Part shown: positions 3,730 through 17,353 of the stretch, piece by piece
Layout: each line of letters opens with the position of its first letter
Numbering within the stretch: position 1 is the stretch's first letter
Assembly: GCA_964520165.1 (NCBI GenBank)
Contig: CAZFMU010000007.1
Coordinates: forward strand, 1-23,688
Source of the DNA: an uncultured Salinarchaeum sp.
Lineage (GTDB): Archaea; Halobacteriota; Halobacteria; Halobacteriales; Salinarchaeaceae
Length of the DNA stretch: 23,688 nucleotides
Direction of reading: 5' to 3'
Translations under genes and position numbers: made by a program
Notes under the pieces: model-generated
Database searches by the model: none
What the model saw: only the letters and a program-made list of their open reading frames with translations
What the model was told of the DNA's origin: nothing

Positions 3730-3804
3730 ATATTAGTATACAAAGAGTACAAAACTTTAAGTAAGTCGAGATAGAGACCGCAAACGGGTGGTGCCAACGA
3801 GATC

Positions 3805-4083
3805 ATGAACTTCACACTCTGGCTCGCGATTGTGTTTGGTGTCAACCTCATTCTTGGGGTTGGCCTCATCATCGGGGTCTTCGGCTTCATGGAACGACAT
3901 GTGTCGCTGGGGGCTACTGGTGGCATTGTAGCCGGGACGGGGTTGATTTACGCGCAGGCGACTTTCGGTGAGCAGATGCTGAAAGTATCTGTTTCCGAGA
4001 TGAAGCTGCTTGTGATTGCCGCGTCCGTTGCCGCCGTAATCGGCGTTGTCGGGACGGTACTTGTTTTGAAGCCGAATCTGTAG
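3805..4083 (+). CDS. Small membrane protein (92 aa, two predicted TM helices)
   Basis: ATG verified at 3805. Hydrophobic segments lie at about residues 4-27 and 68-88. It ends 48 nt upstream of, and on the same strand as, the ESCRT-III-like and Vps4-like genes. Confidence 0.6.
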   Translation: MNFTLWLAIVFGVNLILGVGLIIGVFGFMERHVSLGATGGIVAGTGLIYAQATFGEQMLKVSVSEMKLLVIAASVAAVIGVVGTVLVLKPNL

Positions 4084-4101
4084 CAGATAGTAACGGAAAA
4101 G

Positions 4102-4108: not shown

Positions 4109-4131
4109 CACGAACACAACAATTCAACACT

Positions 4132-4782
4132 ATGGAACTTCGAGACTGGGTCAAAGAACGGTTCGGAACAACTGACACGGAAACGCTTATCGACGAAAGC
4201 GTGTACAGCCGTGATAACCTTCGCAAGGACAAAGCAAAGCTTGAGCAAAGCCTTCGACAGTTGGAAAGCGAGATGGATAAGCACGCAAAAAAGTACGAAA
4301 AGTTGCTTCAGAAAGGCTCCGATGCCGATGAGCTCAGCCGCCAGCAGTACGCGCAGAAGGCGAAATTCGAAAAAAAGAAGTACGAAATCAAGAAGAAAAA
4401 GCACAAGGCCGAAAGTATCAAGCTCGGAACAGTTATCTCAATCGAAGGAATGCGCGAAGTGCTGGCAATGCAAGATGGACAGGACTACGAGCTAGATCGC
4501 CTCTTCGATGGCGACCTTGACGCACAGGAGCTCCAGAGTCAGGTCATGGATGAGATGGCCCAGTTCGGGCTAGAGATTGACGACATGAAGCAGGTTCAGG
4601 AGGCACTTGATATCGAGATCATCGATCAGGATCTCGAAACGGGGGTCTCCGAGGAACTTGAGATTATGGAAGAAATGGCAGCAGGTGATATCTCAGAGGA
4701 ACAGATCGACATTGAAGAGAATGTCGACATTGAAGAGGAAGATATCAATCTTAGCGTCAATCAGCCAAGCCGGACACTCTAA
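4132..4782 (+). CDS. ESCRT-III / Snf7-family-like protein (216 aa)
   Basis: About 210 aa, all alpha-helical. The N-terminal half is basic (KFEKKKYEIKKKKHK) and the C-terminal tail is extremely acidic, which is the ESCRT-III charge asymmetry. Segments resemble Snf7-domain helices (LRKDKAKLEQSLRQLESEMDKHAKKYEKLLQKG; MDEMAQFGLEIDDMKQVQEALD). It is followed after 3 nt by a Vps4-like MIT-AAA ATPase. Confidence 0.6.
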   Translation: MELRDWVKERFGTTDTETLIDESVYSRDNLRKDKAKLEQSLRQLESEMDKHAKKYEKLLQKGSDADELSRQQYAQKAKFEKKKYEIKKKKHKAESIKLGTVISIEGMREVLAMQDGQDYELDRLFDGDLDAQELQSQVMDEMAQFGLEIDDMKQVQEALDIEIIDQDLETGVSEELEIMEEMAAGDISEEQIDIEENVDIEEEDINLSVNQPSRTL

Positions 4783-4785
4783 GTT

Positions 4786-5943
4786 ATGTCCCTTGAGCGG
4801 AGTGCGCAGAGGAAACATTTCGAGTCAGAGTATCAGCGATACCGGTATTTAGCCGAACAAGCACGGTCGGAGGGACACGTAGAGAAGGCAGCCCGGTATT
4901 ATCGCCAGTGTGCAAGCGTACTCACGAACTTAGCGGATCTTGAGTCAAGTTCGCGAATCACGCAAGAACGACTTGAACTCGCGCAGAATCTCGTCACAGC
5001 GGCCGATCAACTTGAGACCGATGGGGAGTTGACAAACGAAACGGTCGATAACGAACAAGAACCGGATCCGAAGACGCCTACAGATGAAGCACCTTCCACT
5101 TCCGAGGATCAACCATCTTCAAGCGACGAGGAGCCCTCAGCTACAGCGTATTTATCTGAGCCTCCGTCGCTTACCTTTACGGATGTAGGCGGCATGATAG
5201 AGTTGAAAGAGACACTCAAGGATCGGGTCATTGATCCTCTTGAGCGTCCAGAGTTGTACGAACAGTACGATTTGGGCGTAGTCAATGGCGTGTTGTTATA
5301 CGGCCCTCCTGGAACTGGGAAAACATACATCACGAAAGCCTTAGCCGGTGAACTTGAGTACAATTACATTGAGGCTCGCGCATCTGATCTCACAAGTTCA
5401 CTTGTTGGCGAGGCCGCTGACAACATGGCCGAGTTGTTCAAAGTCGCTAGAAACCACCAGCCGTGCCTCCTCTTTTTCGACGAGATCGACGCGATTGCCG
5501 CTGAACGGAGTGGCGGTGATCAAAAGACGATGAGCGAGAGCCAGATGATCACCCAGTTTTTGACTGAAATGTCAAATACGAAGGGAGAGGACGTGATTGT
5601 CGTCGGGGCAACCAATCTTCCCGATGATATCGACGGGGCGGCTTGGCGTCGGTTCGACGAGCGTATCAAGGTACCACCACCGGATGCCGCAGCACGAGTG
5701 GCAGTACTACGAATCCATCTTCGTGACCGACCGGTTCTGACCGAGCATATCGATTGGGACCATATCAAAGCGCTCACCGATGGATACTCTTCGAGTGATC
5801 TTGAACTCATCGCGGCAACAGCAGCACGCAAGGCGCTCAAGGAAGCTCGGGAGAACGGTGATGTTGTGCCGATCACTCAGGATCACATCGAAACGGCGAT
5901 TGAAGAGACTGACTCAAGTCTACAGGCATGGAATACGTCCTAA
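4786..5943 (+). CDS. Vps4/CdvC-like AAA+ ATPase with an N-terminal MIT domain
   Basis: The N-terminus (EGHVEKAARYYRQCASVLTNLADL) aligns with the Vps4/CdvC MIT three-helix bundle. An acidic S/T/P linker follows. The single AAA domain has Walker A GPPGTGKT, Walker B LLFFDEID, sensor-1 Asn (GATNLPDDID) and an SRH with arginine fingers (AAWRRFDERIKVPPPD), as in Vps4 (AIRRRFERRIYIPLPD). ATG verified at 4786, 3 nt after the stop of the previous gene. Confidence 0.9.
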   Translation: MSLERSAQRKHFESEYQRYRYLAEQARSEGHVEKAARYYRQCASVLTNLADLESSSRITQERLELAQNLVTAADQLETDGELTNETVDNEQEPDPKTPTDEAPSTSEDQPSSSDEEPSATAYLSEPPSLTFTDVGGMIELKETLKDRVIDPLERPELYEQYDLGVVNGVLLYGPPGTGKTYITKALAGELEYNYIEARASDLTSSLVGEAADNMAELFKVARNHQPCLLFFDEIDAIAAERSGGDQKTMSESQMITQFLTEMSNTKGEDVIVVGATNLPDDIDGAAWRRFDERIKVPPPDAAARVAVLRIHLRDRPVLTEHIDWDHIKALTDGYSSSDLELIAATAARKALKEARENGDVVPITQDHIETAIEETDSSLQAWNTS

Positions 5944-6018
5944 TCATCCACGTCATCAAAACCCAAGTAGTGGTCTCTTCTCGCTGTATATAAACAACGA
6001 AATATAGCCGATGCTGTA

Positions 6019-6735
6019 TTACTGTTTGGCTTCGGTTGTCGCAAGCGCGACAGTAATGTTGTCGCTCCCGCCGTTGTTGTTTGCCTGAGCAATGAGATTA
6101 TCCGCCGCTGCGGACAGTGAGGTCGCATTCGTAACAGTGCGGTAGATCTGCTCATCGCTGACCTCCTCGGAGAGACCGTCAGAACACAGTAGGAGCGTTC
6201 CGGATACCGTATGCTCGTAAAAGTCCGGGTCAATATCTTCATTTGTACCGATCGCCTGCGAGACCACATTCCGCTGTGGATGTGTCTCTGCTTCGGCTTC
6301 GGTAATGTGGCCGGCTTCAACCAGCTGCTGGACAAGCGACTGGTCGGTGGTCACTTGGACAATGTTATCCCCGATATGATAGGCGCGACTATCGCCGACA
6401 TTGGCAATGATGGCCTCCTGCTCATTGATCACAGCCGCCACTAACGTGGTGCCCATCCCACGGTCGCCACCGGCATCTGGATGGCTGCGGACGGCAGTGT
6501 TGGCGGCAGTGATACCGGAAGCGAGGGCTACTTTCCAGTCACCGGTAGTGGTACGAAGCCTTTCCTTGAGCGTAGAGAGCGTCCGTTGACTCGCGACATC
6601 ACCAGCTGCGTGCCCACCCATCCCGTCTGCAACAGCGATTAGACCAACACCGTCAATTTTGACGGCGGTAACAGCGTCCTCGTTGTGTGAGCGCTGTCGT
6701 CCGGTGTCCGTTCGGGTTGCGAAGTGAACGGTCAT
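6019..6735 (-). CDS. PP2C-family (PPM) Ser/Thr protein phosphatase
   Basis: Canonical PPM motifs are present: TDTGRQRSHNED, AVADGMGGHAAGDVAS, DSRAY, LLCSDGL and GGSDNIT. ATG verified at 6733-6735. 238 aa. Confidence 0.9.
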   Translation of the reverse strand: MTVHFATRTDTGRQRSHNEDAVTAVKIDGVGLIAVADGMGGHAAGDVASQRTLSTLKERLRTTTGDWKVALASGITAANTAVRSHPDAGGDRGMGTTLVAAVINEQEAIIANVGDSRAYHIGDNIVQVTTDQSLVQQLVEAGHITEAEAETHPQRNVVSQAIGTNEDIDPDFYEHTVSGTLLLCSDGLSEEVSDEQIYRTVTNATSLSAAADNLIAQANNNGGSDNITVALATTEAKQ

Positions 6736-6826
6736 GATTCGATAGCTGCAGGTATTAACGTGAGTCTGCCTTGTGACTGGAAGTGTGTAACCCGAGTATT
6801 TGATTGAGAATGATCACGATAGTCCA

Positions 6827-7528
6827 TTACTCTTGAGGAAGTGACGCACCACAATACGGACAGAAGGCTGCGTCAGAGCTAATTTCTTCGCCGCACTGTG
6901 GACAGAATTGCTGCGTTGACGACGACTGTGCATTCGCCGCTGCGGCGACTTCCTCCGGGCTCTGTGTCTCAACTCGCCCCGAGTCGGATCCATCGGCGAT
7001 ATCTGAGCGGTTGACAACACTATCTTCGACGGTCGTTGACCGATCGATACTATCGCCCATGACGACATCCCCGTCTCCCCGATGGACAACGTTGTTTTCG
7101 ACTCTAGCTTCCGAGACTGTTTCCAAATGAAATGAGGTCTGATACCCGATCGTGATCGTCGCATCATTCGATACCGTCTGAAGGTGACCTTGTGGAACGT
7201 CATGGGTCGTTCCCTGCGACTCAACGGTCACACCGTTGGAGTTCGCCTGGTTGCGAATTTCAATCGTCTGGTCCTGCGGTACCACGACGACCGGAGCGAG
7301 ACCCTCTTTCTTTCGCGATACCGTCACATCGCCAATACCGAGATCAATGATATCTGAAGGGGTTTCAGCGATAATGGTCGTTCCGTCGCCCGAGTCACGA
7401 TAGAGTTCGATACGTCCGTCTATCGGGAGTTTTCCGCCGTCCCCGGAGGCAACCGACAGATATCCTTTCATACGTATTGTGTGAGTTAATTGGAATTCGT
7501 CGTTCGGTTGAGGTTGTTGGGTAGCCAA
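6827..7528 (-). CDS. FHA-domain (phosphothreonine-binding) protein with a C-terminal Cys4 zinc ribbon
   Basis: The N-terminal region matches the FHA signature: G-R, then S-R (VTVSRKKEG), then N-G (ANSNGVTV). The C-terminus is CPQCG-x10-CPYCG. The track start at 7526-7528 is TTG. An in-frame ATG at 7469-7471 (MKGYLSV...) is the more likely true start. The architecture resembles Sulfolobus ArnA, which also combines a zinc finger with an FHA domain. Confidence 0.75.
   Translation of the reverse strand: MATQQPQPNDEFQLTHTIRMKGYLSVASGDGGKLPIDGRIELYRDSGDGTTIIAETPSDIIDLGIGDVTVSRKKEGLAPVVVVPQDQTIEIRNQANSNGVTVESQGTTHDVPQGHLQTVSNDATITIGYQTSFHLETVSEARVENNVVHRGDGDVVMGDSIDRSTTVEDSVVNRSDIADGSDSGRVETQSPEEVAAAANAQSSSTQQFCPQCGEEISSDAAFCPYCGASLPQE
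7002..7040. repeat. DNA-level copy of a shared C-terminal tail module (encodes ...TTVEDSVVNRSDI...), paralogous to 9019..9047 and more weakly to 8671..8724
   Basis: tctgagcggttgacaacactatcttcgac (7002-7030) matches tctgagcggttaatgacactatcacttac (9019-9047) at 23 of 29 nt. Both lie within different genes. Confidence 0.45.
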
Positions 7529-7613
7529 ACCTGTAATCCGGAATCGTGTCCCATGCGTTGGCCCGTATTGCTAAGACATAGCCACGATGGCATAAAATTC
7601 AGGATACTACACA

Positions 7614-8378
7614 CTAGTTACGAAGGTACAGTCGCCGTACTCGCTCGGCCAGTTGACCGATCCGCTTGCTACGTTGTGGATCCAGCTGGTCAGATGCTAT
7701 CGCAGCAGCTTTGAGTTGCTGCTGTTGGGCCTCTAATTCTGACTGAACGTCCTCGTACGCGTCATCATCAACCGGAGTATCTTTGACAAATGAGTGGACC
7801 TCATCAAGTCGTTTACGACAGGCCTCCGCTGAATCTTCGCAGGCTCGCTCAAGATGTTCGGTTAGGGAGACGGCTAAGTAATCCGCAGAGGCATCCTGGA
7901 GCCGATCAACGGACTCGGTTGCGGCGAGATCGGCCAATCCGTCCTGCGCCATCTTGCGTTCTGTCTGTCGAGTCGCATCGTCAATGACGGTGTGGTAAGT
8001 TTCTTCAATCTCCTCGCGAAGCGTGTCAGAGTCTACTCTGGCTGCGTAGGTTTGCAAGCGATCTAAGGCCCGTTCTCGTTCGTCTGAGCGGTTGCCATCT
8101 TGTGCTACATCACAGTGCACGGAGATGGCTGTTGGGACCACCCCGGGAGCTGACTGGCCAACAAGCTTGTCAAGCTGCGATTGAGCAAGTGTGCGCTCCT
8201 CTTCGTAAGTCGCATCCCTAGCTACACGCGCAAGTGTTCGCCCGATCGCTGCACGCTGTTGATCATCAACCTCAGAGTAGAGGTCGCCAAGACGCTCAAG
8301 AGCCTCTTTGCGATCGGAGGAATACGTCGATTCACGAGCCTGACGCCGCAGTTCACTTACTGAGTCATGAAGAGCCAT
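7614..8378 (-). CDS. Hypothetical alpha-helical repeat protein (255 aa; HEAT/PBS-like repeats)
   Basis: The ORF track extends to 8603, but the first 75 residues are non-acidic and hydrophobic. The first ATG that yields a halophile-type protein (MALHDSVSELRRQ...) is at 8376-8378 and was verified. Helical motifs of the form ALERLGDLY / ALDRLQTYA repeat. Confidence 0.6.
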   Translation of the reverse strand: MALHDSVSELRRQARESTYSSDRKEALERLGDLYSEVDDQQRAAIGRTLARVARDATYEEERTLAQSQLDKLVGQSAPGVVPTAISVHCDVAQDGNRSDERERALDRLQTYAARVDSDTLREEIEETYHTVIDDATRQTERKMAQDGLADLAATESVDRLQDASADYLAVSLTEHLERACEDSAEACRKRLDEVHSFVKDTPVDDDAYEDVQSELEAQQQQLKAAAIASDQLDPQRSKRIGQLAERVRRLYLRN

Positions 8379-8439
8379 TGAACAGTCCCCTTGGTTGGAC
8401 GAACCTATATAATAGAACAGACATATTCTTTGTGGTGGC

Positions 8440-8997
8440 CTACGGTGGGGTCGATTCACCACAGTCCGGACATTGATCTGCCGCAGACGGGAGTTCTGCT
8501 CCACAGAATATGCAGTATTGGTTGTCCTCAGAGTCACGATCGGCAGGAGCATTAGATGTTGAACTCCCGCTATAGCTATTATCCGAGGACACAGTAATCT
8601 CATCCTTGTTGTCGGTGACCGTCATATTAGAAGCAACGCTATCGGTAATGGTGGTTTCCTCGGCTTGAGTATTAATATTCGATTTATTGACGACGCTGTC
8701 CTCAATAACCGTGCTGTGATCGTTCACTGTAGTGTGTTCATCAGTTTTCGTAGTGCTGTTGTCTACTCGCGTGATGTCGGTCTGCTTAACCGTCTTGTCC
8801 TGCTGACCGCTAACGATATCTCCGCTGACGTGAGTTACATCATCTGTAGTCGAGTCGAGAATATTGGCGGCAAGTTTATCCACCGTGTCATTATTACTGT
8901 TGGTCTCAACGGGGGCTGATGGGTCCCCCTCAGAACATTTTGGACATTCAGCTCCTGTATATACCTCGTTGTGTTGTTCGCAGTACGGCATAGTCAC
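8440..8997 (-). CDS. Zinc-ribbon protein with a Thr/Ser/Asp-rich low-complexity core
   Basis: N-terminal C-x15-CPKC and C-terminal CIFCG-x10-CPDCG. The middle is extremely T/S/D/N-rich and carries the shared EDSVVNKSNI tail motif. The track start at 8995-8997 is GTG and overlaps the upstream stop as GTGA. An ATG two codons downstream (8989-8991) is an alternative start. Confidence 0.65.
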   Translation of the reverse strand: MTMPYCEQHNEVYTGAECPKCSEGDPSAPVETNSNNDTVDKLAANILDSTTDDVTHVSGDIVSGQQDKTVKQTDITRVDNSTTKTDEHTTVNDHSTVIEDSVVNKSNINTQAEETTITDSVASNMTVTDNKDEITVSSDNSYSGSSTSNAPADRDSEDNQYCIFCGAELPSAADQCPDCGESTPP

Positions 8998-10157
8998 TCG
9001 TTCGTATTGTCGTCAACGTCTGAGCGGTTAATGACACTATCACTTACTTCCGTGCTCTCGTCGTTTACCTCGGTGCTCTGATCAATTTCGGTTATGCTTT
9101 GATCAACCGCGGCAATTTCAGTCGTGTCGACGGTTTTGTCCTGAGACCCGACAACCACGTCACCGTCAATAGTAGTATCACCTCCAAGCTCATCGAGACT
9201 CGTGATACCGGCGTATCTGAACTCTCCAATCGACGGCGGATCCTTACGTGTCGATTCAATGGCATCCTCGAACATGTTCCGGATGGCAGCGTAGTGATCG
9301 TCAGGGAGCTCGTTGACTGTCCGCCAGGCCCGATCAGCCACTTTTCCATCGCCGGCATCGGTGATGTCAACTGAGTACAAGCCCTGCTCCCAGACCGCGT
9401 CAATATCGAAAACCCAGAGCCCCACGGCATCAATATTACTATTTGATTTGATATGTTCGAATAAGTGTGGGGTCAAGAGCCCGACGCAGTCAGCAATTCG
9501 AATAGAACCGGTCATCGATCGAATGGTAGGATTTACGACCGCTACGTTCGCGCCTAGTGTGATATCTCCCGCAGCACTGACTGAAAATGCAAATAGGTCC
9601 GACGCTTCGATGTCCCCCTCCGAGTACACATCGCCGAGAATAACTGTCCGTGCGTTCGTCCGAAATGCGTCGGTTGCGTGCACCGAGCCGTATACGACAG
9701 TTGGACGCTCGACTGTGATATGCGCTCCAATTAAGTCACCATAGATCGCGACTGGCTGAGCTTCCCAGTCGTCAAAGGTTGATGCAGGAGCCACAATATC
9801 TATTTGCCCCTTTGAAATCACAGAGCCAGCAATACGCGCCCCGAGAGTAGACGCTTCATTAGCCGCCGGGTGAGCCGCCCCGCCGTGCTCAATAGCGACA
9901 CGATCACGGCCGAATATGTCACCGCTGACCTGTACACCGTACTTACAGTCAACTTCGGCGGCATAGATACCGATTGCCTCAGGCGGATTATATACCGACC
10001 CCTTTTCGAGAGTCACTTGCCAGTTGAGTTGGCGAAACGCGTTTTCCCGTGGAACGAGTGCCTCCTCGCACGTTTGATCAGCCTTGACAGTTGCAAAATT
10101 CGTGTTGTCTGTTTCGACTTTGTCCGACGTGATTGCTCCCTGAAGTTTGTCAGGCAC
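8994..10157 (-). CDS. Bactofilin-like beta-helix (polymer-forming cytoskeletal) domain protein with a Thr/Asp-rich tail
   Basis: The central ~170 aa consist of tandem short hydrophobic/Gly repeats of the bactofilin (DUF583) type: VQVSGDIFGRDRVAIEHG, ARIAGSVISKGQIDIV, VAIYGDLIGAHITVE, TVILGDVYSEGDIEASD and FSVSAAGDITLGANVAVV. The GTG start at 10155-10157 overlaps the upstream stop by 8 nt, and there is no in-frame ATG for about 210 codons. The C-terminus carries the shared DSVINRSDV motif. Confidence 0.6.
   Translation of the reverse strand: MPDKLQGAITSDKVETDNTNFATVKADQTCEEALVPRENAFRQLNWQVTLEKGSVYNPPEAIGIYAAEVDCKYGVQVSGDIFGRDRVAIEHGGAAHPAANEASTLGARIAGSVISKGQIDIVAPASTFDDWEAQPVAIYGDLIGAHITVERPTVVYGSVHATDAFRTNARTVILGDVYSEGDIEASDLFAFSVSAAGDITLGANVAVVNPTIRSMTGSIRIADCVGLLTPHLFEHIKSNSNIDAVGLWVFDIDAVWEQGLYSVDITDAGDGKVADRAWRTVNELPDDHYAAIRNMFEDAIESTRKDPPSIGEFRYAGITSLDELGGDTTIDGDVVVGSQDKTVDTTEIAAVDQSITEIDQSTEVNDESTEVSDSVINRSDVDDNTNE
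9019..9047. repeat. Second DNA-level copy of the shared tail module (encodes ...SDSVINRSDV...)
   Basis: See 7002..7040. Confidence 0.45.
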
Positions 10158-11148
10158 GTGCGGTCACCTCCGCGGTGTCCTCGGTTGTTGTAGCGTCTGT
10201 TGTCCTCTGTTTGTGATTGCCTTCTGCCTCAATCTCGTACGTTCGTAGTGCCTCAACAAATCGATCCAACGCGATATCTTCCTCTATAAGAAACTGGGGA
10301 TCGACATATGCACTGTCATCGCGGCTAGCAAGCGCATCACGCACCTCATCCTGTGCAACATACGACCGTACTGCATCAGCCATTTTGCTGTAGCCGTGTA
10401 CGGGATGCTCTCGGAGGTAGTCTCGGTATGGTTGGGAACGAGTTGGGGATTCGACATCATCAGAACGCCCTAAAATGGAATAAACGCGGAGTTCTTCGCC
10501 GTCATCTGTCTCAATGCCAACGACCCAAAAGGGAACTGTTATCTGCGCGGTATCACTCATTGTTGGGAGATCCGTCTGGAGTGACGCAATCGTATCTGCG
10601 GTCGCGGAGCGGTCATCAAGGAACTGATCAATCTGTTCGAAGTAGTTATTCCGCGCAGAGAGAATAGCATCAATACGATCACGATAGGTCTCATTTGTCG
10701 TGTTAGCAAGATTTGACGACTGACTGGCGACTGTTGAACGAGCCTCACGGATGTGATCAAACTCATCGTTAACTGTCTTGAAGGTATCACCGTGGCCGCC
10801 GATCGAATTCAAAAACCGATTTTTTAGACGCTTGATACTCCCGCGGTAGTCATCAAGCACCTCTTTGACGCGGTCTTCGTACTCCTGTCGCTTGCGTTCA
10901 ACCTCTTCTCTAAGTTGATCTTTGAGATCTTCGATTGCCTGACGTTCGGCCGTTGCTTTCTTGTGCTCAACATCACGAATTTGATGTTTGAGTTGTTTGA
11001 CCTCGTCGCTAAGCTGATCAACAGCACTGTTTGTCTCTCGGATTTCGCGTTTGAGATCATCAATCTGATCCGCAACAGCATCGCCTGCGGCCCGTCCGAT
11101 GCGGTGTTCGTCTACGTTTACTGTGACGTCCTGCTTGTCAGACATCAT
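10150..11148 (-). CDS. Hypothetical coiled-coil protein (332 aa)
   Basis: ATG verified at 11146-11148 (MMSDKQ). It overlaps the upstream gene's stop as ATGA. The N-terminal ~100 aa is heptad-like and E/R/K/Q-rich. The C-terminal half is mixed alpha/beta. Confidence 0.7.
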   Translation of the reverse strand: MMSDKQDVTVNVDEHRIGRAAGDAVADQIDDLKREIRETNSAVDQLSDEVKQLKHQIRDVEHKKATAERQAIEDLKDQLREEVERKRQEYEDRVKEVLDDYRGSIKRLKNRFLNSIGGHGDTFKTVNDEFDHIREARSTVASQSSNLANTTNETYRDRIDAILSARNNYFEQIDQFLDDRSATADTIASLQTDLPTMSDTAQITVPFWVVGIETDDGEELRVYSILGRSDDVESPTRSQPYRDYLREHPVHGYSKMADAVRSYVAQDEVRDALASRDDSAYVDPQFLIEEDIALDRFVEALRTYEIEAEGNHKQRTTDATTTEDTAEVTARA

Positions 11149-12692
11149 AGATCACCCAGCTGCTGCTCAATCTTGCGAGCCGTATCATAATCTGACTTGA
11201 TTTCGAAGTAGCGTTGCTCAGCGTCATCTTTGATTTGCTCGTATTGCGTGAGATCGATCATCTTCTGTTCTTTTGTCTGCCGAATCTCCTCGGCCTCCTG
11301 CTCAAGATCTTCAACGCTGTCCATGATCGGATCACGGAATGCATAGTAGAGGCTCCGCCATACCTCGCCGAAAAGTGCGCCACTATCAGCAACCGCAACG
11401 GGATCAACTGATCCGTGGACATCGCAGTAGCCTTGCTGGCCAAGGTCGTCAAGTCGGTTGTACGCACGCCTAAGTTCATCGTCAAGTTCAGGGATAGCTG
11501 CGGCAATGTCATCACGGATCTGGCCGGTGAAGTCCGACTCAGCACCACGATTGAGATCGGAGTCGCTGAGGGCCATGCCGAGACTCCCACTTTCAGCGCT
11601 TAGGATCTCGTCGACAAGATTGAGCTCGTCACGGATCGTCTCGATCCGATCTTCAAGACACTGTGGACAGACCTGCTTTTTCCCTGCAGTAGTGATCTGG
11701 TTGGCGTGATCGTCGTAGTGCGCCTCAACACGCTGTTGATTCGTCCGAAGGCGGGTCACTAGCTCCGTCGTAATCTCTTCCACACGGTCGCGACTCGCCT
11801 GCGCCTGCTCAAGCATATCGCCGCTCACCGCCTGTTCCTCAACGCCACGAATATCATCTACGGTCTCCTCACACTCGTTAAGCTGCTGACGAACCGATAC
11901 CTCTGGAATATCACGAGAAGGAGCCAAGAGCGAGTTACGCGATAGTTGTCTTATACTTTGTGCCACTTGGTTGTTTGCATGAACTGCTGCAGTAATCGTA
12001 TCACGTTCAATATTGCCTGCAACAGCGGCCATCGAATCAATCTGGTTGATGATCGGCTGCTCAAGACGGCGGTGGTCAGTAGCGTCCGGCGCGAACTGGG
12101 TAGCAACCGACGGATCAATGATAGATTCCTTACCGAAGGCCTCGTCATACTGTTGTTTGTAGGCAACAACTTCTTGTTGATTATCAAACAACAGTTCAGA
12201 GTCAATATATGCAAGTTCAAGATTTGTTTTAGGGGCAGTGTTCAGCCCATCGAAGATCATGTGCTGATCCTGGTAAGGGATCAAATAGAGAGGAACCCCT
12301 ATTTGTGAAACGAACGAAACGGTTCCATCTGGCTCGTTCGTCTCAAGCTTCGATCGCTGGGTGAGGATTAGCTCTTTCGCATCTTGATACTTACTAAATG
12401 CGTAGATACCGACACCAAGCGCAGCGACGAGACCTATACTGGCAAGGATCAATGCTTCCCCGGCCAAACCAATAATGATAAGCAGTATACCACCGGCCAC
12501 CCCACCGCCGCCGAGTTGTTGCATGCGCCGCTGTCGGGATTCAGCCTCAGTAATTGTATCCTCATACCGTTTCTGTCGGTCGAAGTAGCTGCCTGCAGCG
12601 TCGGCAAACGCCATGGCAAGTACTTCTGTTCGAGCGCGTTCATGCGGTATCCGTTCCCCAGCGTCTACCATTCCCGGAGCTTGATATGACAT
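11145..12692 (-). CDS. Membrane protein with an N-terminal 2-TM hairpin and a long helical cytoplasmic region (515 aa)
   Basis: The ORF track extends to 12779, but the first ATG giving a halophile-type N-terminus (MSYQAPGMVDAG...) is at 12690-12692 and was verified. Hydrophobic segments: GVAGGILLIIIGLAGEALILASIGLVAALGVGIYAF. It heads a run of four tightly coupled genes with overlapping start/stop codons (12692 to 8440). Confidence 0.7.
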   Translation of the reverse strand: MSYQAPGMVDAGERIPHERARTEVLAMAFADAAGSYFDRQKRYEDTITEAESRQRRMQQLGGGGVAGGILLIIIGLAGEALILASIGLVAALGVGIYAFSKYQDAKELILTQRSKLETNEPDGTVSFVSQIGVPLYLIPYQDQHMIFDGLNTAPKTNLELAYIDSELLFDNQQEVVAYKQQYDEAFGKESIIDPSVATQFAPDATDHRRLEQPIINQIDSMAAVAGNIERDTITAAVHANNQVAQSIRQLSRNSLLAPSRDIPEVSVRQQLNECEETVDDIRGVEEQAVSGDMLEQAQASRDRVEEITTELVTRLRTNQQRVEAHYDDHANQITTAGKKQVCPQCLEDRIETIRDELNLVDEILSAESGSLGMALSDSDLNRGAESDFTGQIRDDIAAAIPELDDELRRAYNRLDDLGQQGYCDVHGSVDPVAVADSGALFGEVWRSLYYAFRDPIMDSVEDLEQEAEEIRQTKEQKMIDLTQYEQIKDDAEQRYFEIKSDYDTARKIEQQLGDL

Positions 12693-12787
12693 TACACAGG
12701 GGAGTAATATCATACAACTCAAATAAATGCTTGGGCGCTGCTGCACCCGCCGCAAGTGCTTTATCACTAACAAAACCATTTCTCATC

Positions 12788-12943
12788 ATGCACGTTCAGG
12801 TGCTTGAATTCGAGTACAACGCTACAGACGCCAAATCAATTGAGACGCGCCTGAATAACTATTTCTCACACCACGAAGTCACAAACGTTGAGGTTGTTGA
12901 TACTGGTGGTCGAATCCTTGTCTTTTGTTTCTCCGCGGAGTGA
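12788..12943 (+). CDS. Possible small acidic protein (51 aa; MHVQVLEFEYNATDAKSIETRLNNYFSHHEVTNVEVVDTGGRILVFCFSAE)
   Basis: ATG at 12788. Halophile-like composition. It occupies a 312-nt gap between two minus-strand genes. There is no homology evidence, so it could equally be non-coding promoter space. Confidence 0.25.
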   Translation: MHVQVLEFEYNATDAKSIETRLNNYFSHHEVTNVEVVDTGGRILVFCFSAE

Positions 12944-13004
12944 ATGCGTTGTGATGCTAAGTGACACGACACGTCTAATTTTCTACCAATATCATGTACG
13001 GCAC

Positions 13005-14837
13005 TTACTCAAGCTGAGTGCCACACTCAATGCAGTACGTCGTACCAGGATCGTTTTGACTCCCACAGTCCGGACAGGTAATCGCTTCTTCGGCCGAGGA
13101 GCCTCTCTCAGAAGATTCGGCTTCACTCTCCGATGGTCCACCGCTCTGCACAATAGTCGTATCGCCACCAGAGGACGCTCCCGAATCGCCACTAACGATG
13201 ACATTATCGGAGGTATCCTCAGCAGCGGCAGCTGCCGCCTCACCCATGTTGTCCATCGCGGATTCGGTAGTCTCCTGCATCCGGTCCATTGAGTCGTCCA
13301 TCATCTCGTTCATCTCTTCGCGGAACTGCTTTTGATCCTTGACGCGCTGGCGTTCCTTTTCGGCACTATTAGCCTCCTGTCGCGCCTTCGCGAGTTCGTC
13401 GCTGTTCTGTGCCCCTAGCGAGTCGAGTTGATCCGCATTGAGGTGTTCGGCCTTGTCCATCTTCGCAAGTTCTGTCAGCGCGTCGGTATCCGTGTCGTCG
13501 AGACTCGCGAGCGTTTGTGCGTCCACGTTGTCGCGGGCACTAAGTCGCTTCTTTTCGACAGCGATATCATGCGACTCCTTTTCCATCTCAAGTTCTTGAT
13601 TGCGAGCCTTCTTGTCGAGTTTTTGCTCGTCTTTTTTCTGCTTGATGTCGAGCAGATCCTCTATTTCGGACACGTCCTGCTGGTGCTCGTCGGACCGCTC
13701 CTTCATCGACTGCTCGTGTTTGATATCGCGTCGATTGACGGCCGACTCCGTCCGATGGGTCTTCAGCTGTTCGTCGTGTTCGACGGTTTCCTGCTCGGCG
13801 TTGTGTGCGTGTCGCCGCTGCTGGTCCTCAAGATCCTGTTCGTGATCAAGTGCCTGGGACTTGATTTCGTGGTCGGCCGCCTGTTCGACCGTCTCGCGAC
13901 GCACCCGCTGTTCGTGTGTGTGTACCGTATCGTCGGTCTCGCGTTCGCGCTCGCGACGGTCAAGTGCCGCCGTCTGGTCAGCCAGTTCTTCTCTCTCCTC
14001 CCGGATATCGAGTTCCTTGTTGCGTTCGCGGAGTTCATCGCGGTCGTCCGCGTAGTCGAACGACAACAGTTCAATGAGTGACAGGCCATTTCGCTGGAAT
14101 GCGTCCTGGCACACTGTCTCGAGTTCGTCGCGAATTCGCTGTCGGACAGCCTGGTTACCATAGAGTTCATCGTGGGAATACTCGTGCAGCGCCGACTCAA
14201 CAGCATTGCGCATGGCCCGTCCGAGATCTTGGTTGAGGGCTCCGGTCGTCAGGGCGTCGCGATCTGCCATCATCGACTCGAAGAACCGTTCGAAGTCGTC
14301 GATCGACACGACGACTTCGAGTGTTGCCGATACAGGATAATCGTTTTGCGTACGAATATCCTCGAAAGTTCGCCGAACCGTCTTCTGTCCTTCGTCAACA
14401 AGGATAATGGTGAGATCGGGGGATCGGCGGAGTTCAACGATACGCTGGGGAAGGCTATCAAGTGTGTGCTGGCCAGGGCCGAGCGTTTCGGTGAGTTCGC
14501 CGTTCTCAAGCAGTAAGGCCCGGGTGCCCTGCTGGATCCGGATACTCTCGGTCCGCGTGAGTTTGCCGAGGAGGCTACCGGCACCGAGTACCTGCTCGTC
14601 AACACGTTTCGCAAACTCATCATCAGCCAGTCGCCAGCCGCCGCTTGTAGGAGCCTTCCCACTACTTTCATGTTCGGCACCTGCGGCAAGTTCCTGGCCA
14701 CAGTTACGACAGAACTGCGCCTCTACGGGGTTTGACTCGCCACAACTCGGGCAAGTGCGTACAAGCGGCTCTCCACATTCCTTGCAGAACTCGGCCTGTG
14801 CTGATACATCGGCGTTGCAGTTTGGACAGTGAGGCAT
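13005..14837 (-). CDS. Flotillin-like protein: N-terminal double zinc ribbon, SPFH/band-7-like domain, long E/R/Q-rich coiled coil, and C-terminal zinc ribbon
   Basis: ATG verified at 14835-14837. The N-terminus has CPNC..CKEC..CPSC..CRNC and the C-terminus CPDCG..CIECG. Residues ~95-250 follow the band-7 pattern: SIRIQQGTRALLLENGELTETLGPGQHTL, then LTIILVDEGQKTV, then TFEDIRTQNDYPVSATLEVVVSIDDFERFF, then a helical segment. About 250 aa of charged coiled coil follow, resembling the flotillin EA-repeat domain. Confidence 0.8.
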   Translation of the reverse strand: MPHCPNCNADVSAQAEFCKECGEPLVRTCPSCGESNPVEAQFCRNCGQELAAGAEHESSGKAPTSGGWRLADDEFAKRVDEQVLGAGSLLGKLTRTESIRIQQGTRALLLENGELTETLGPGQHTLDSLPQRIVELRRSPDLTIILVDEGQKTVRRTFEDIRTQNDYPVSATLEVVVSIDDFERFFESMMADRDALTTGALNQDLGRAMRNAVESALHEYSHDELYGNQAVRQRIRDELETVCQDAFQRNGLSLIELLSFDYADDRDELRERNKELDIREEREELADQTAALDRRERERETDDTVHTHEQRVRRETVEQAADHEIKSQALDHEQDLEDQQRRHAHNAEQETVEHDEQLKTHRTESAVNRRDIKHEQSMKERSDEHQQDVSEIEDLLDIKQKKDEQKLDKKARNQELEMEKESHDIAVEKKRLSARDNVDAQTLASLDDTDTDALTELAKMDKAEHLNADQLDSLGAQNSDELAKARQEANSAEKERQRVKDQKQFREEMNEMMDDSMDRMQETTESAMDNMGEAAAAAAEDTSDNVIVSGDSGASSGGDTTIVQSGGPSESEAESSERGSSAEEAITCPDCGSQNDPGTTYCIECGTQLE

Positions 14838-15145
14838 GGGTACTGGGTGAAAGGGGTATTGCCCTTCCTTTTGATAGCGAGGATGTGGTTACCCCGGAGG
14901 TTCACTAGATGGGGACTGTCCGGGACTCCACAACCACTGAAGGAAGAGCTATGGTATGGTTATTGTTTGACTTGATGTGTTGTTGTTACAAAAACCAGCC
15001 TGATAAAACTTAGCGTCACACGCGATCAATTGGAAGCTCAAGCAGTATCCTGTAAGGCCACGATTGGACGACTTGTGCAACTGAGCAGAGTTCCACGGGA
15101 CCACTTTGCGTAAGATTCAGTAGATCCCTAACAAGATCAGAGGAC

Positions 15146-17353
15146 GTGACCAGGTGGTCGCGTCGGGCAATACTCGGCGGCATTATCGGTGGGACCGGCG
15201 GAGCGATGGGGCTGACCGAACGAGCCCGGGCCCAGTCCGGCCGTCGCAAGTGGCCCTCATTTGCGTGTGACACGCAGAACACGGGGGCAACCCCTGCACG
15301 GCCGCCAGAAACCTCGCCAGCAATAGAGTGGACAGCTGAGGTGAACGGTGCCGTGCTGTCGACAGCGGCGATAGCCGACGAACGGGTGATTGTTGGCGAC
15401 GAAACAGGTGTCCTTCACGCCCTTAACGCGTTGTCGGGAGAGCGGCTGTGGACGTTTGACACCGCAGATCGCATTAGGTCGACACCCACGGTTCGAAACG
15501 GAACAGTTGTCGTTGGGAGCGATGACGGAACGCTCTATGGACTCTCGACGACCGGCGAGCACTACTGGGAGTTCGAAACAGAGGGTCCGATTGTTGCGTC
15601 ACCGGCCCTCGTAGACGGCACTGTTTATGCCGGCAGCTACGATGGAACAGTATATGCTATTGACGTGACCAACGGTGATCCAGTGTGGATGACGGAGACG
15701 GGGGGGCTGATTGCATCGTCCGCAGCGGTGGCCGACGATACAGTGTATCTCGGCAGTAGCGACCAGCAGATGTATGCGCTCGACGCAGCGACGGGAGAGT
15801 CCGTGTGGCAAACCGAGGTGGAGGCTGAGATCGCCGCGTCGCCAGCAGTCAGCGGCGGAACCGTATTTATCAATACCGGGAGCGGGGAAACATATGCATT
15901 CGATGCTCGTTCCGGAAACCAACGGTGGTCCTTCGAGATGGACGGGATGGCCGGCACCTCGCCCGCAGTAATGGACGGGACAGTGTACCTGAGTGAAGGG
16001 CTAACCGGCACACGGGTTCATGCGGTGAGCGTGACGACAGGAACGCATAGGTGGACGGTTAATACCGAAGCGGCGGTTCAGGGCTCGCCGGCGGTCGGAG
16101 GCAAAACTATGTACATTGGTACCGGTGATGGACAGCTGTATGCCATTGGCACGTCCAATGGACAGGTGCGATGGACGATCAATCTTGATGGCCCCATTCA
16201 AGCCGGTCCAGCACTCGTTAATGGTGGGGTCATCGTTGGGACGACGGATGCAACCGTGTACGCCCTGGGAAACGAACAGTTCATGAGTGTCCCGGGCGGC
16301 CCGGGGCTCCCGGGAGGCGTCGGTGCACTGATAACCGCGGGACTCGGTGTCGGCGGCGGGACTTGGTGGTGGTGGCGTCAACGGGGTCGCTCATCTTCCA
16401 CCGACACTTCCAAGCAGTCCCAATCCGATTCTGCGGGGTCGTCAACCACAAGCGGTTCTGAGGCGGCTGCCGATATTACGCCGACCGAGATTCCCGACGA
16501 AATGACAGATCACCCGAAGATTCCTGAGACCGTGCCAGCACCAGCGAAGCGCTCGCTTGAGTATCGCTCGTTCCAGACGAAGACGCAGATCGGGAGTGGT
16601 GGCAATGCTGATGTCTATCGTACGACAACAGCTGACGGAGCCGAACTTGCAGTCAAAGAACCACATGTTACGGGAACGATCCACACAGAGACCGTCGAAC
16701 AGCTCCTCGAAGAGGCCGAGACGTGGGGTCAACTTGATGACCACGACCACATCGTGAAGATAGTCGACTACGGTAGCGATCCAGTACCCTGGATCGCCAT
16801 GGAGTATATGGACGGAGGGACGCTTACGCAACGAGCAGGCAATATGGGCGACCGGCAGGCACTCTGGACAGCAATCGCCGTCACAAAAGCGGTACGACAC
16901 GCCCACCGTCGTGGGGTTGCGCATCTTGATCTCAAGCCAGCGAACATCCTCTTTCGATCAGTCAAGGACAGATGGGACGTTCCCAAGGTCGCCGACTGGG
17001 GCCTTTCGAAGCACCTCTTAGAGCACTCACATAGCATCGAGGGACTCTCGCCACAGTACGCCGCCCCAGAGCAGTTTGATCAGGATCGAGGAGTCGCCGA
17101 TAACGTGACCGATATCTACCAGTTGGGAGCCGTTCTGTACGAACTATTCACTGGGCGACCACCGTTCGAGGGGCGACCGACCGAGATCATGCAGTCAGTA
17201 CTTGCCACCGAACCGCAACCACCGAGTTCTCTCGTAGAAGGGGATCTTCCACCGGCACTCGATGATATCCTTATGAAGGCCCTGGCGACCAGTAAAGGAG
17301 ATCGGTACGACGATATTGTCTACCTCAGAGACGATCTGCGGGATCTGTATTAG
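15146..17353 (+). CDS. Receptor-like Hanks-type Ser/Thr protein kinase: Tat signal, 8-blade PQQ-like beta-propeller ectodomain, single TM, cytoplasmic kinase domain (catalytically intact)
   Basis: GTG start. The N-terminus MTRWSRRAILGG is a twin-arginine motif. Eight repeats of the form V(Y/V)xGSxDGxxYAxDxxxGxxxW are present. A TM helix (GALITAGLGVGGGTWWWW) is followed by an S/T-rich juxtamembrane linker. Kinase motifs: Gly loop GSGGNADVY, the conserved Lys in ELAVKEP, helix-C Glu (EEAETW), catalytic loop HLDLKPANIL, DWG in place of DFG, and APE (YAAPEQ). Confidence 0.9.
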   Translation: MTRWSRRAILGGIIGGTGGAMGLTERARAQSGRRKWPSFACDTQNTGATPARPPETSPAIEWTAEVNGAVLSTAAIADERVIVGDETGVLHALNALSGERLWTFDTADRIRSTPTVRNGTVVVGSDDGTLYGLSTTGEHYWEFETEGPIVASPALVDGTVYAGSYDGTVYAIDVTNGDPVWMTETGGLIASSAAVADDTVYLGSSDQQMYALDAATGESVWQTEVEAEIAASPAVSGGTVFINTGSGETYAFDARSGNQRWSFEMDGMAGTSPAVMDGTVYLSEGLTGTRVHAVSVTTGTHRWTVNTEAAVQGSPAVGGKTMYIGTGDGQLYAIGTSNGQVRWTINLDGPIQAGPALVNGGVIVGTTDATVYALGNEQFMSVPGGPGLPGGVGALITAGLGVGGGTWWWWRQRGRSSSTDTSKQSQSDSAGSSTTSGSEAAADITPTEIPDEMTDHPKIPETVPAPAKRSLEYRSFQTKTQIGSGGNADVYRTTTADGAELAVKEPHVTGTIHTETVEQLLEEAETWGQLDDHDHIVKIVDYGSDPVPWIAMEYMDGGTLTQRAGNMGDRQALWTAIAVTKAVRHAHRRGVAHLDLKPANILFRSVKDRWDVPKVADWGLSKHLLEHSHSIEGLSPQYAAPEQFDQDRGVADNVTDIYQLGAVLYELFTGRPPFEGRPTEIMQSVLATEPQPPSSLVEGDLPPALDDILMKALATSKGDRYDDIVYLRDDLRDLY

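Follow-up and report, generated by a model that had tools for sequence, protein, structure and literature searches.

A conserved haloarchaeal module of membrane, coiled-coil, beta-helix, and zinc-ribbon proteins is encoded together with ESCRT-III and Vps4

The main text and Table S1 of Makarova et al. (2024, mBio; PMC10936438) describe ESCRT systems of haloarchaea. Besides Vps4 and ESCRT-III, these contain Ser/Thr kinases, phosphatases, and an FHA protein. For archaeon A07HN63, proteins ESS09462 to ESS09465 are listed there as FHA-CdvA, Vps4, ESCRT-III, and arCOG09748, and ESS09464.1 belongs to arCOG07402 in Table S1. For Natronolimnobius baerhuensis, a Halo_FHA genome, the ESCRT components listed include an SPFH protein. 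Halobacteria divide using FtsZ (PMC10936438).

We analyzed a stretch of 23,688 nucleotides from an uncultured Salinarchaeum sp. (the window). A preliminary description had identified a string of eight minus-strand genes in it. This string is real and conserved across haloarchaea, and it makes up half of an approximately 18-gene cluster, which occupies most of the window:

1081..3060 (-), arCOG09748-type protein, predicted "ESCRT system protein with C-terminal wHTH", 659 aa, helical/coiled-coil
3057..3644 (-), arCOG08177-type protein (inactivated Cas2 plus TBP-like domain), 195 aa; 4-nt overlap with the downstream gene
3805..4083 (+), membrane protein, 92 aa, upstream of ESCRT-III, with hydrophobic segments
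4132..4782 (+), ESCRT-III/Snf7-type protein (arCOG07402), 216 aa, N-terminal half basic, tail acidic
4786..5943 (+), Vps4-type AAA ATPase, 385 aa, MIT-like N-terminus and one AAA domain
6019..6735 (-), PP2C Ser/Thr phosphatase
6827..7471 (-), FHA-ZnR protein, 214 aa: divergent FHA domain, Thr-rich tail motif, C-terminal zinc ribbon
7614..8378 (-), helical-repeat protein, 254 aa, four ~40-residue repeats ("ER..A...L..L")
8440..8997 (-), Thr-rich zinc-ribbon (ZnR) protein, zinc ribbons at the N- and C-terminus and the shared tail motif
8994..10157 (-), beta-helix protein, 387 aa, conserved N-terminal motif and disordered Thr-rich tail
10150..11148 (-), coiled-coil protein, 332 aa, N-terminal coiled coil and C-terminal alpha/beta domain
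11145..12692 (-), 2TM protein (membrane anchor), 515 aa: N-terminal helix, 2TM hairpin, large cytoplasmic helical domain, CxxC...CxxH site
12788..12943 (+), 51-aa protein, conserved, encoded divergently from the 2TM gene
13005..14837 (-), ZnR-SPFH protein, 610 aa: 2–3 zinc ribbons, SPFH, long charged coiled coil, C-terminal zinc ribbon
15146..17353 (+), receptor-type Ser/Thr kinase with PQQ beta-propeller and TM segment (Pfam), catalytic motifs intact
17419..19614 (+), probable pseudokinase with PQQ beta-propeller, TM segment, and a kinase-like domain (Pfam) that has neither the catalytic Asp nor DFG
20959..22476 (+), Ser/Thr kinase (Pfam Pkinase, 2.3e-33) with C-terminal hydrophobic, membrane segments

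As in the published Halo_FHA systems and the halobacterial "Main" clade (PMC10936438), the Vps4-type ATPase is encoded directly downstream of the arCOG07402 ESCRT-III gene. The window also shares with them genes of the arCOG09748 and arCOG08177 types, a divergent arCOG13166-family FHA domain, membrane Ser/Thr kinases that carry PQQ-type ectodomains, a phosphatase, and an SPFH protein. The ESCRT part belongs to the Halo_FHA/Main type of haloarchaeal ESCRT system, which that paper already describes. A difference is that the fusion partners of the FHA domain in the window are a Thr-rich tail and a zinc ribbon, in place of the CdvA-like domain. The locus goes beyond these systems in its 2TM, coiled-coil, beta-helix, Thr-rich ZnR, helical-repeat, and 51-aa genes, and we found no mention of these six in the main text of PMC10936438. 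For the first four of them, the core, a literature search found no published description. The combination had been thought to be undescribed; this does not hold for the ESCRT, FHA, kinase, and phosphatase part, nor is SPFH new to that setting, but it appears to hold for the core. The apparently undescribed part is this four-gene module, plus the 51-aa, helical-repeat, and soluble ZnR-SPFH proteins.

Like the crenarchaeal CdvA-CdvB-CdvC system, the window encodes an ESCRT-III protein, a Vps4-type ATPase, and a dedicated membrane-targeting partner; unlike that system, it has no CdvA or PRC-barrel protein, and its hosts are Halobacteria. In the actinobacterial FhaA/FhaB-PstP-PknA/PknB cluster, genes for FHA proteins, a PP2C phosphatase, and receptor Ser/Thr kinases lie beside genes for morphogenetic membrane proteins. 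The window likewise encodes FHA, PP2C, and receptor kinases together, but the actinobacterial substrates are unrelated, and that cluster lacks ESCRT, SPFH, and beta-helix components. Among the products of the PspA-YdjG-YdjH-YdjI operon are a zinc-ribbon protein and a membrane protein. As described, this module resembles the window in encoding an ESCRT-III-superfamily protein with an SPFH protein, and differs in having no AAA ATPase, beta-helix protein, or phospho-signaling genes. In Bacillus subtilis, its SPFH protein localizes the ESCRT-III-superfamily protein to the membrane (Scholz et al. 2021, via PMC10936438).

The order 2TM, coiled-coil, beta-helix, Thr-rich ZnR is invariant in all loci that have these four genes (26–64% identity), and the ZnR gene comes next in every locus that extends beyond the beta-helix gene. 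The core occurs with the divergent 51-aa gene, the helical-repeat and SPFH genes, and ESCRT-III/Vps4 in several haloarchaeal genera (Haloplanus, Halosimplex, and Salarchaeum) and in metagenomic haloarchaea; the same families recur as a group in at least six independent lineages of haloarchaea. The fully flanked loci are the window, L007 from Halosimplex, L008 and L011 from Haloplanus, L010 from Salarchaeum, L014 from a MAG, and L021 from a metagenome. In each of them, the genes for the SPFH, helical-repeat, and 51-aa proteins and the paired ESCRT-III and Vps4 genes are within 10 kb, in differing arrangements. The ZnR-SPFH gene is conserved across the loci compared, and the helical-repeat gene adjoins SPFH or the core in all complete loci. 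The 51-aa protein has exactly this length in the window and in 11/11 homologs from other loci. In Halosimplex, the entire cluster is inserted between atpI and atpK, so it moved as one piece. A PemK toxin gene is just outside the window's cluster.

The 659-aa gene is found in full-length core-bearing loci, including all of the fully flanked ones except L011, where its expected position is beyond the flank retrieved. Most, but not all, of the fully flanked loci encode homologs of the 92-aa protein (upstream of ESCRT-III in L007, L008, L011, L014, and L021) and of the 195-aa protein (L008, L011, L014, and L021). These genes and ESCRT-III/Vps4 travel with the core; they are members of the system and not mere flanking neighbors, as ESCRT-III/Vps4 had been taken to be. 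Nor are the eight genes the unit: besides this co-travel, PP2C and the full FHA-ZnR protein are rarely present. Among the haloarchaea compared, PP2C is confined to the window's own lineage, and outside the window the full FHA-ZnR protein was detected only in L009 and L014, which are distinct loci. The ranges of the beta-helix and 2TM families are narrow and match each other (42 and 46 clusters). The ESCRT-III family is broader (203 clusters), and Halonotius has ESCRT-III without the module. The distribution is patchy: our scan was positive for 4 of 185,579 species representatives.

All eight claimed ORFs are present at the coordinates given for them, as are the ATGA junction at 11145-11148 and, if a GTG start is used, the 8-nt overlap at 10150-10157. 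The GTGA at 8994-8997 is in the sequence, but gene callers start the gene 6 nt downstream, at an ATG, so that a gap of 2 nt remains. The helical-repeat and 2TM ORFs had been over-extended (the likeliest starts are 8378 and 12692), and the run is interrupted between the SPFH and 2TM genes by the 51-aa gene on the opposite strand. Overlaps of 4 nt, like same-strand runs, are ordinary in prokaryotic operons. Alone they carry no weight; the weight for the gene string comes from synteny.

The 216-aa protein had no match in Pfam (including Snf7) or in a PDB profile search. We assign it to ESCRT-III because of its orthology to a published arCOG: it is 69% identical to ESS09464.1. ESS09465, the matching neighbor in A07HN63, is listed as arCOG09748. 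The listing order of ESS09462 to ESS09465 is the gene order that we observe in Halonotius, whose homologs of the 659-aa gene adjoin ESCRT-III. In the 195-aa protein, the motifs YLYVVEY..AERKR.EYL and LSKKKAVLQSA..NEYE.YTKKG agree with the published arCOG08177 alignment. The ATPase (Pfam AAA, 3.3e-37) has Halonotius orthologs at 66–67% identity, and the best match of its N-terminus is the MIT domain of Sulfolobus Vps4 (2v6y, E = 0.027). Its AAA core is nearest to Cdc48 D2, with Cdc48, PAN, and FtsH as close as CdvC, and its match to NCBIfam's CdvC is under the cut-off.

Pfam bears out the ZnR-SPFH assignment (DZR, 1.9e-16; Band_7, 4.4e-9, 37.1 bits vs. a cut-off of 23.6); we looked for a hydrophobic or transmembrane segment in this protein and found none. 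The 2TM protein has a single 43-residue hydrophobic stretch, which is modeled as a hairpin. The 332-aa family (14 sequences aligned) gave just coiled-coil noise in Pfam and PDB searches, and the helical-repeat protein, whose repeats are from an alignment of 9 homologs, had no match in Pfam. The Thr-rich ZnR protein is 14% Thr, with CxxC pairs at each end and a weak match to DZR.

The beta-helix protein was proposed to be bactofilin-like, and membership in that family was not borne out: it has no match to Pfam's Bactofilin, its relatives score 20–21 bits (cut-off 27.9), and a Foldseek comparison with BacA (2n3d) gave E = 2.4. Like bactofilins and halofilins (PF04519; PMC11459167), this putative polymer has a beta-helical core, disordered tails on either side, and a membrane-associated context, but its beta-helix spans ~170 residues and the Pfam profile has a length of 98. 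Some of its homologs are labeled "polymer-forming cytoskeletal protein" in their source records.

The beta-helix, ZnR, and FHA-ZnR proteins have in common a Thr-rich tail of ~60 residues. Residues 47–109 of the ZnR protein align with the beta-helix tail at 49% identity (E = 7e-14), and the tail and zinc ribbon of the FHA-ZnR protein match the Thr-rich ZnR protein (E = 4e-9). Most of the scanned loci have 2–3 copies of the tail; ESCRT loci without the module have none. T369 never varies, and the neighboring TVEDSV residues (370, 372–375) are at least 90% conserved. The tail is modeled at a pLDDT of ~30. It could be a co-assembly element instead of a phospho-site.

As for the signaling proteins, the PP2C assignment is confirmed (Pfam, 8.5e-16). 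The FHA-ZnR protein has the claimed zinc ribbon (Pfam Zn_Ribbon_1, 5e-10) but no match to Pfam's FHA; its N-terminal domain is 37% identical to the Halonotius protein in the arCOG13166 position (E = 8e-19). Homologs of the 15146..17353 kinase are close to the core in L009, L021, and L029.

Outside of Halobacteria, synteny persists in a weaker form, on one contig without an assigned taxon and on Thermoplasmatota-type contigs. On the former (L029), the core is beside two Ser/Thr kinases, with 2TM-like (E = 3e-45), coiled-coil-like (E = 3.5e-31), beta-helix, and SPFH-like proteins and a TPR protein that bears a tail-like motif. L028 also has a homolog of the coiled-coil protein. L025 (Thermoplasmatota) encodes a beta-helix protein, a TPR protein, a ZnR protein, a Pfam-positive FHA protein followed by PP2C, and, on the opposite strand, a 52-aa look-alike of the 51-aa protein (E = 0.003). 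The kinases of L029, and the presence of FHA and PP2C alongside the beta-helix gene of L025, support phospho-control. Because the link to kinases, FHA, and PP2C recurs in distant loci, the preliminary description's "scaffold under phosphorylation control" is a reasonable reading. We found no ESCRT-III/Vps4 genes within the available, short contigs of L025, L028, and L029. The link to ESCRT may be confined to haloarchaea, or may reflect co-regulation rather than physical coupling.

On balance, and with moderate confidence, we favor a phospho-threonine-regulated membrane scaffold that directs ESCRT-III remodeling. What the analysis establishes is which genes are present, their order and joint inheritance, the folds, and the common tail. 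The physical interactions and cellular output that we infer are as follows. The 2TM protein would tether a scaffold of coiled-coil and beta-helix proteins to the membrane, next to an SPFH assembly. Receptor kinases would phosphorylate the common Thr-rich tail, and PP2C would remove the phosphates. The FHA domain would read the phospho-threonines and thereby switch recruitment of the ESCRT-III polymer to the scaffold, and Vps4 would then recycle the polymer. The outcome would be local membrane remodeling (budding, scission, or repair). It counts against this mechanism that PP2C is not adjacent to the core in other haloarchaeal loci, and neither, in most, are the kinases and FHA.

It is possible, though we think it unlikely, that the SPFH, 2TM, coiled-coil, and beta-helix polymer proteins are instead an autonomous cytoskeletal or membrane-microdomain scaffold controlled by Ser/Thr phosphorylation, as originally proposed. 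It would act in cell shape, division-site, or envelope organization, with ESCRT-III/Vps4 co-located via common kinases. Distant loci with the core, SPFH, and kinases, or with FHA and PP2C, and no ESCRT genes in the contig fit this explanation, but those contigs are short, and haloarchaeal ESCRT genes accompany the core in every fully flanked locus despite rearrangements. This co-travel spans two differently related ESCRT sets as well as the single-piece insertion in Halosimplex. The cytoskeletal labels and sub-threshold Bactofilin matches also favor it, but bactofilin membership is not established.

More doubtful still is a mobile conflict or defense island, with the 2TM protein as a SLATT-like membrane-perforating effector that is restrained by kinase/FHA/PP2C signaling, while ESCRT-III and SPFH limit membrane damage. 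The patchy distribution, the genomic context that differs by genus, the insertion within an A-ATPase operon, and the nearby PemK gene are consistent with this. The 2TM region is weakly similar to SLATT_1 and DUF3040, but the SLATT matches are sub-threshold and limited to the hydrophobic hairpin. PADLOC and PHROGs gave no specific match (just AAA and coiled-coil noise), the cluster has no nuclease, protease, NTPase-sensor, or nucleotide-signal enzyme, and its ESCRT part is orthologous to chromosomal systems of Halonotius.

Finally, that unrelated genes merely happen to lie side by side in a gene-dense region, to which the overlaps and same-strand runs might have pointed, is extremely improbable and is ruled out by synteny, as the families recur jointly across those divergent haloarchaeal lineages and the core is found again in non-halophilic archaea.

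Genes for a 2TM, a coiled-coil, a beta-helix, and a T-rich zinc-ribbon (ZnR) protein are at the core of this cluster. We refer to these four genes as the module and to the first three as the triad. The genes of the window that matter here are:

1081-3060, minus strand: 659-aa protein
3057-3644, minus strand: 195-aa protein
3805-4083, plus strand: 92-aa membrane protein
4132-4782, plus strand: 216-aa ESCRT-III-type protein
4786-5943, plus strand: 385-aa ATPase
6019-14837, minus strand: eight ORFs, for PP2C, FHA-ZnR, helical-repeat, T-rich ZnR, beta-helix, coiled-coil, 2TM, and ZnR-SPFH (610 aa) proteins
12788-12943, plus strand: 51-aa protein

The eight minus-strand ORFs are all present, and the junctions between them read as first described: ATGA at 11145-11148 (...ctATGAtg...), an 8-nt overlap at 10150-10157 that holds with a GTG start, and GTGA at 8994-8997, where public gene callers chose an ATG 6 nt further on. 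Two ORFs were over-extended in the raw list; based on the lengths called on identical public contigs, the most plausible starts are 8378 for the helical-repeat protein (254 aa) and 12692 for the 2TM protein (515 aa). The eight genes do not form one unbroken string but are interrupted by the plus-strand 51-aa ORF in the interval between the SPFH and 2TM genes. This small protein is exactly 51 aa in 11 of the 11 homologues that we extracted from other haloarchaeal loci. A scan for sigma-70 promoters and terminators found fewer sites than in shuffled sequences, and the sigma-70 model is not applicable to archaea.

We used tblastn to compare all of the window's proteins to 22 fetched loci. Every locus that has all four genes of the module has them in one and the same order: 2TM, coiled-coil, beta-helix, T-rich ZnR. 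The loci with full flanks are the window itself and those from Halosimplex marinum (L007), Haloplanus pelagicus (L008), H. litoreus (L011), Salarchaeum (L010), a Haloarculaceae MAG (L014), and a metagenome (L021). In these loci, the genes for the 51-aa, SPFH, and helical-repeat proteins and the pair of 216-aa and AAA genes are all within 10 kb, in differing arrangements. Every one of them but L011, where its place would be beyond the fetched flank, also shows the 659-aa gene, and most, not all, have recognizable homologues of the 92-aa and 195-aa genes. Other parts are patchier: among haloarchaea, PP2C is seen in the window's own lineage only; outside the window, the full FHA-ZnR protein was detected in L009 and L014, and kinases are near the core in L009 and L021. 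In Halosimplex (L007, 1-16038), the A-type ATP synthase operon holds the whole 13-gene cluster, inserted at an unusual site between its atpI and atpK genes, which implies that the cluster moved as a single piece. In haloarchaea, the module is inherited together with the ESCRT genes. On balance, we favor the view that these genes encode a phospho-threonine-regulated membrane scaffold that plugs into an ESCRT-III/Vps4 system of the Halo_FHA/Main type. The scaffold would supply the membrane-targeting or cargo arm of the ESCRT system, whose cellular output might be budding, scission, or repair.

The ESCRT genes match a published type. The 216-aa gene stops 3 nt short of the ATPase gene, and its product (203 homologue clusters) is 69% identical to ESS09464.1 from the archaeon A07HN63, which a table in the survey of archaeal ESCRT systems by Makarova et al. 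2024 (PMC10936438) assigns to arCOG07402, in the ESCRT-III/Snf7 family. Because Pfam's Snf7 did not match the protein, and the ESCRT-III-type alignment, searched as a profile against the PDB, gave a chance match only (E = 0.72), its membership in ESCRT-III rests on orthology. Table S1 of the survey gives ESS09462, 63, 64, and 65 as FHA-CdvA-like, Vps4, ESCRT-III, and arCOG09748 (PMC10936438). Two Halonotius ESCRT loci without the module (L023 and L024) have exactly this gene order, and their proteins are 54-75% identical to the window's. The ATPase has an MIT-like N-terminus and a single AAA domain (Pfam AAA, E = 3.3e-37), and it shares 66-67% identity with the orthologues that occupy the Vps4 position in Halonotius. 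The best PDB match to its N-terminus is the MIT domain of Sulfolobus Vps4 (2v6y), which is weak (E = 0.027); its match to NCBIfam's CdvC (169 bits) is below the cut-off, and its AAA core resembles Cdc48 and PAN as closely as it does CdvC. The 195-aa protein has the motifs of the published alignment of arCOG08177 (inactive Cas2 plus TBP), and we assigned the 659-aa protein by its homology to the Halonotius gene at the position of arCOG09748 (C-terminal wH). By the survey's definition of Halo_FHA/Main systems, the window shares their Vps4-type ATPase (arCOG01307), arCOG07402 directly upstream of it, and the arCOG09748 and arCOG08177 types.

The 92-aa membrane gene is directly upstream of the ESCRT-III-type gene and is kept in L007, L008, L011, L014, and L021. 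Halonotius L024 has a 99-aa gene in the same position (a positional match). We noticed no discussion of the 92-aa gene in the survey's text (PMC10936438).

The preliminary description took the whole combination of genes to be undescribed, which is correct for only a part of it. According to the survey (PMC10936438), arCOG09748, arCOG08177, Ser/Thr kinases, and phosphatases are among the further products of Halo_FHA loci, and one of the ESCRT components that it lists for Natronolimnobius baerhuensis, which represents Halo_FHA, is an SPFH protein. The survey proposes that Halo_FHA systems recognise phosphorylated proteins as cargo; its inference that they sort phosphorylated proteins, or form vesicles, draws only on gene content. 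We found no mention of the 2TM, coiled-coil, beta-helix, T-rich ZnR, helical-repeat, or 51-aa proteins in its text, and a full-text literature search on the relevant domain terms returned no paper that describes such a module. So the kinases, PP2C, FHA, SPFH, ESCRT-III, and Vps4 were already described, and, as far as we found, the conserved module of four to six genes and the tail that its proteins share were not.

This tail is rich in threonine. Residues 321-382 at the C-terminus of the beta-helix protein are 49% identical to residues 47-109 of the ZnR protein (E = 7e-14), and the FHA-ZnR and ZnR proteins have the end of the tail motif and the zinc ribbon in common (E = 4e-9). In a six-frame motif scan, most scanned loci that bear the module had two or three copies of the tail, and the rest had one. 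The beta-helix protein always has it, and the ZnR protein usually does; the third copy is in the FHA-ZnR protein or, in Haloplanus-type loci, in a TM-tail-ZnR protein. The six-frame scan did not find the motif in the module-free Halonotius ESCRT loci. In an alignment of 25 sequences, T369 is invariant, and T370 and E372-V375 of the TVEDSV stretch are at least 90% conserved. Since FHA domains recognise phospho-threonine, in some cases with a preference for Asp at +3, it is plausible that the tails are kinase substrates and FHA ligands. The predicted phospho-threonine is inside the tail ...D.STT.D.STTVEDSVVNRS... and the conserved TTVEDSV-type tail, on two or three proteins per locus, is a candidate for the FHA ligand.

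The FHA domain itself is divergent. Pfam confirms the C-terminal zinc ribbon of the FHA-ZnR protein, and Pfam's FHA (PF00498) did not match the window protein or its homologues in L009, L014, L023, and L024 at E values up to 10. Over its N-terminal 115 residues, the window protein shares 37% identity (E = 8e-19) with the Halonotius terrestris protein whose gene comes right after that of the Vps4-type ATPase; in the sister genome, A07HN63, ESS09462 occupies this position (arCOG13166). Homology to a published divergent FHA family thus supports the proposed FHA identity, although the FHA profile does not; the FHA call for this family is the survey's own (PMC10936438). In Halo_FHA/Main systems, arCOG13166 is reported as FHA fused to a CdvA-like C-terminal domain, whereas the window protein combines FHA with the Thr-rich tail and a zinc ribbon. 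There is no FHA-CdvA-like gene after the window's ATPase. In place of FHA-ZnR, the Haloplanus-type loci (L008, 4154-5020, minus strand; L017, around 97, minus strand) have a protein with N-terminal TM segments followed by the same tail and a zinc ribbon. Therefore, the tail and zinc ribbon form a cassette that is combined with different N-terminal domains.

The PP2C assignment was correct (PF00481, E = 8.5e-16 and 58.8 bits, above threshold; PP2C_2, E = 1.5e-13). The 610-aa protein has a double zinc ribbon (Pfam, E = 1.9e-16) and, at residues 100-280, a Band_7 domain (PF01145, E = 4.4e-9; 37.1 bits vs. a gathering threshold of 23.6). The label "flotillin-like" is justified as to SPFH but not as to the flotillin subtype: the protein has no hydrophobic segment, which means that it lacks the flotillin-type N-terminal membrane hairpin or anchor, and a PDB sequence search found no relative at E = 0.01. 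With this cluster, the recurring partnership of ESCRT-III and SPFH (PspA-YdjI in bacteria, and in methanogens) gains a third architecture.

A beta-helix was confirmed for the protein that had been called bactofilin-like, but "bactofilin" was not. Pfam's Bactofilin (PF04519) did not match the window protein and was reached by just 5 of 25 homologues (best E = 0.042); distant relatives score 20-21 bits, where the cut-off is 27.9; and Foldseek aligned the protein to the bactofilin BacA with E = 2.4. The beta-helix protein has 42 homologue clusters, all of them haloarchaeal, and was found in 4 of 185,579 scanned species representatives. The 2TM protein has 46 clusters and the same taxon range. For the coiled-coil protein, Pfam and a PDB profile search gave coiled-coil noise only.

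To reach beyond Halobacteria, we searched 1.84 billion representative proteins with a beta-helix profile. The 77 matches include full-length non-acidic relatives, one of which, from a Thermoplasmatota MAG, is annotated as "polymer-forming cytoskeletal protein". We then ran HMMs from the haloarchaeal families against the contigs of distant relatives, some of which were cut at the gene or too short to inform. On one contig (L029), a single strand encodes homologues of the 2TM (E = 3e-45) and coiled-coil (E = 3.5e-31) proteins, a beta-helix protein, a TPR protein with a tail-like motif (ADSVMTRSNV), a SHOCT-containing SPFH-like coiled-coil protein, and two Ser/Thr kinases. A Thermoplasmatota contig (L025) has genes for beta-helix, TPR, double zinc-ribbon, and PP2C proteins and for an FHA protein that Pfam does recognize (29.3 bits), as well as for a 52-aa look-alike of the 51-aa protein, on the opposite strand and in the same relative orientation. 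The range of the triad and its partner genes takes in Halobacteria and non-halophilic archaea, Thermoplasmatota among them. The proposed tie between the scaffold and Ser/Thr phospho-signalling is thus supported across phyla, by the kinases in L029 and by FHA and PP2C in L025.

No ESCRT-III or Vps4 genes are visible in L029 or L025, which are short contigs, and the coupling of the module to ESCRT is documented only in haloarchaea. An autonomous cytoskeletal scaffold that is merely co-located with ESCRT could have such a distribution; given the co-inheritance in haloarchaea, we consider this unlikely, but it is the strongest of the alternatives. We tentatively propose that the triad, the SPFH, helical-repeat, and zinc-ribbon proteins, and the shared tail make up an undescribed archaeal membrane scaffold that is switched by kinase, FHA, and PP2C, and that in haloarchaea it is the missing targeting or cargo-selecting arm of ESCRT-III/Vps4. 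This arm would be a functional analogue of CdvA or of ESCRT-0/I/II. The membrane anchor, the coiled-coil protein, and the beta-helix protein are candidates for the target that recruits the ESCRT polymer. The cluster speaks to the question of what ESCRT-III/Vps4 does in Euryarchaeota that divide with FtsZ.

A mobile conflict island with a SLATT-like effector seems less probable still. The SLATT profile (PF18181) matches 4 of 12 homologues of the 2TM protein (best E = 0.0044), and DUF3040, with scores below its cut-off, matches 11 of the 12; neither match extends beyond the hydrophobic hairpin. PADLOC and PHROGs gave nothing specific, just AAA (IetA-like) and coiled-coil matches. A chance juxtaposition is refuted by the synteny, as the gene families recur together across the haloarchaeal loci, and we give it almost no weight.

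The structure model of the 2TM protein (pLDDT 75, pTM 0.33) begins with a helix and also shows a TM hairpin, very long helices, and a small alpha/beta domain. C342, C345, C423, and H426 are near-invariant (a CxxC and a CxxH pair), which suggests a zinc site at 342-345 and 423-426. The Salarchaeum-type loci (L010 and L018) have other residues in place of these pairs.

We also considered a provirus or a vesicle-forming plasmid, and rejected both: there are no integrase, capsid, or replication genes and no PHROG match. Megablast found no plasmid with the block. The window's proteins are strongly acidic. Its ESCRT and scaffold part (1-15000) has a G+C content of about 49-57%, vs. 56-63% for the kinase part (15000-22000). 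Two of the four kinase-like proteins in the window (17419-19614, plus strand; 22666-23577, minus strand) lack the catalytic Asp and DFG (HGALQP / AGW and YEALTP, respectively). Judging from these motifs, they are probably pseudokinases that form pairs with the two active kinases (15146-17353 and 20959-22476). Finally, four of the distant non-halophilic beta-helix relatives (P0213, P0215, P0219, and P0224) have a Cys-rich insert (CxxC...C..H..GxC) after the beta-helix, which the haloarchaeal proteins lack, and one of the four has a zinc ribbon fused at its N-terminus.
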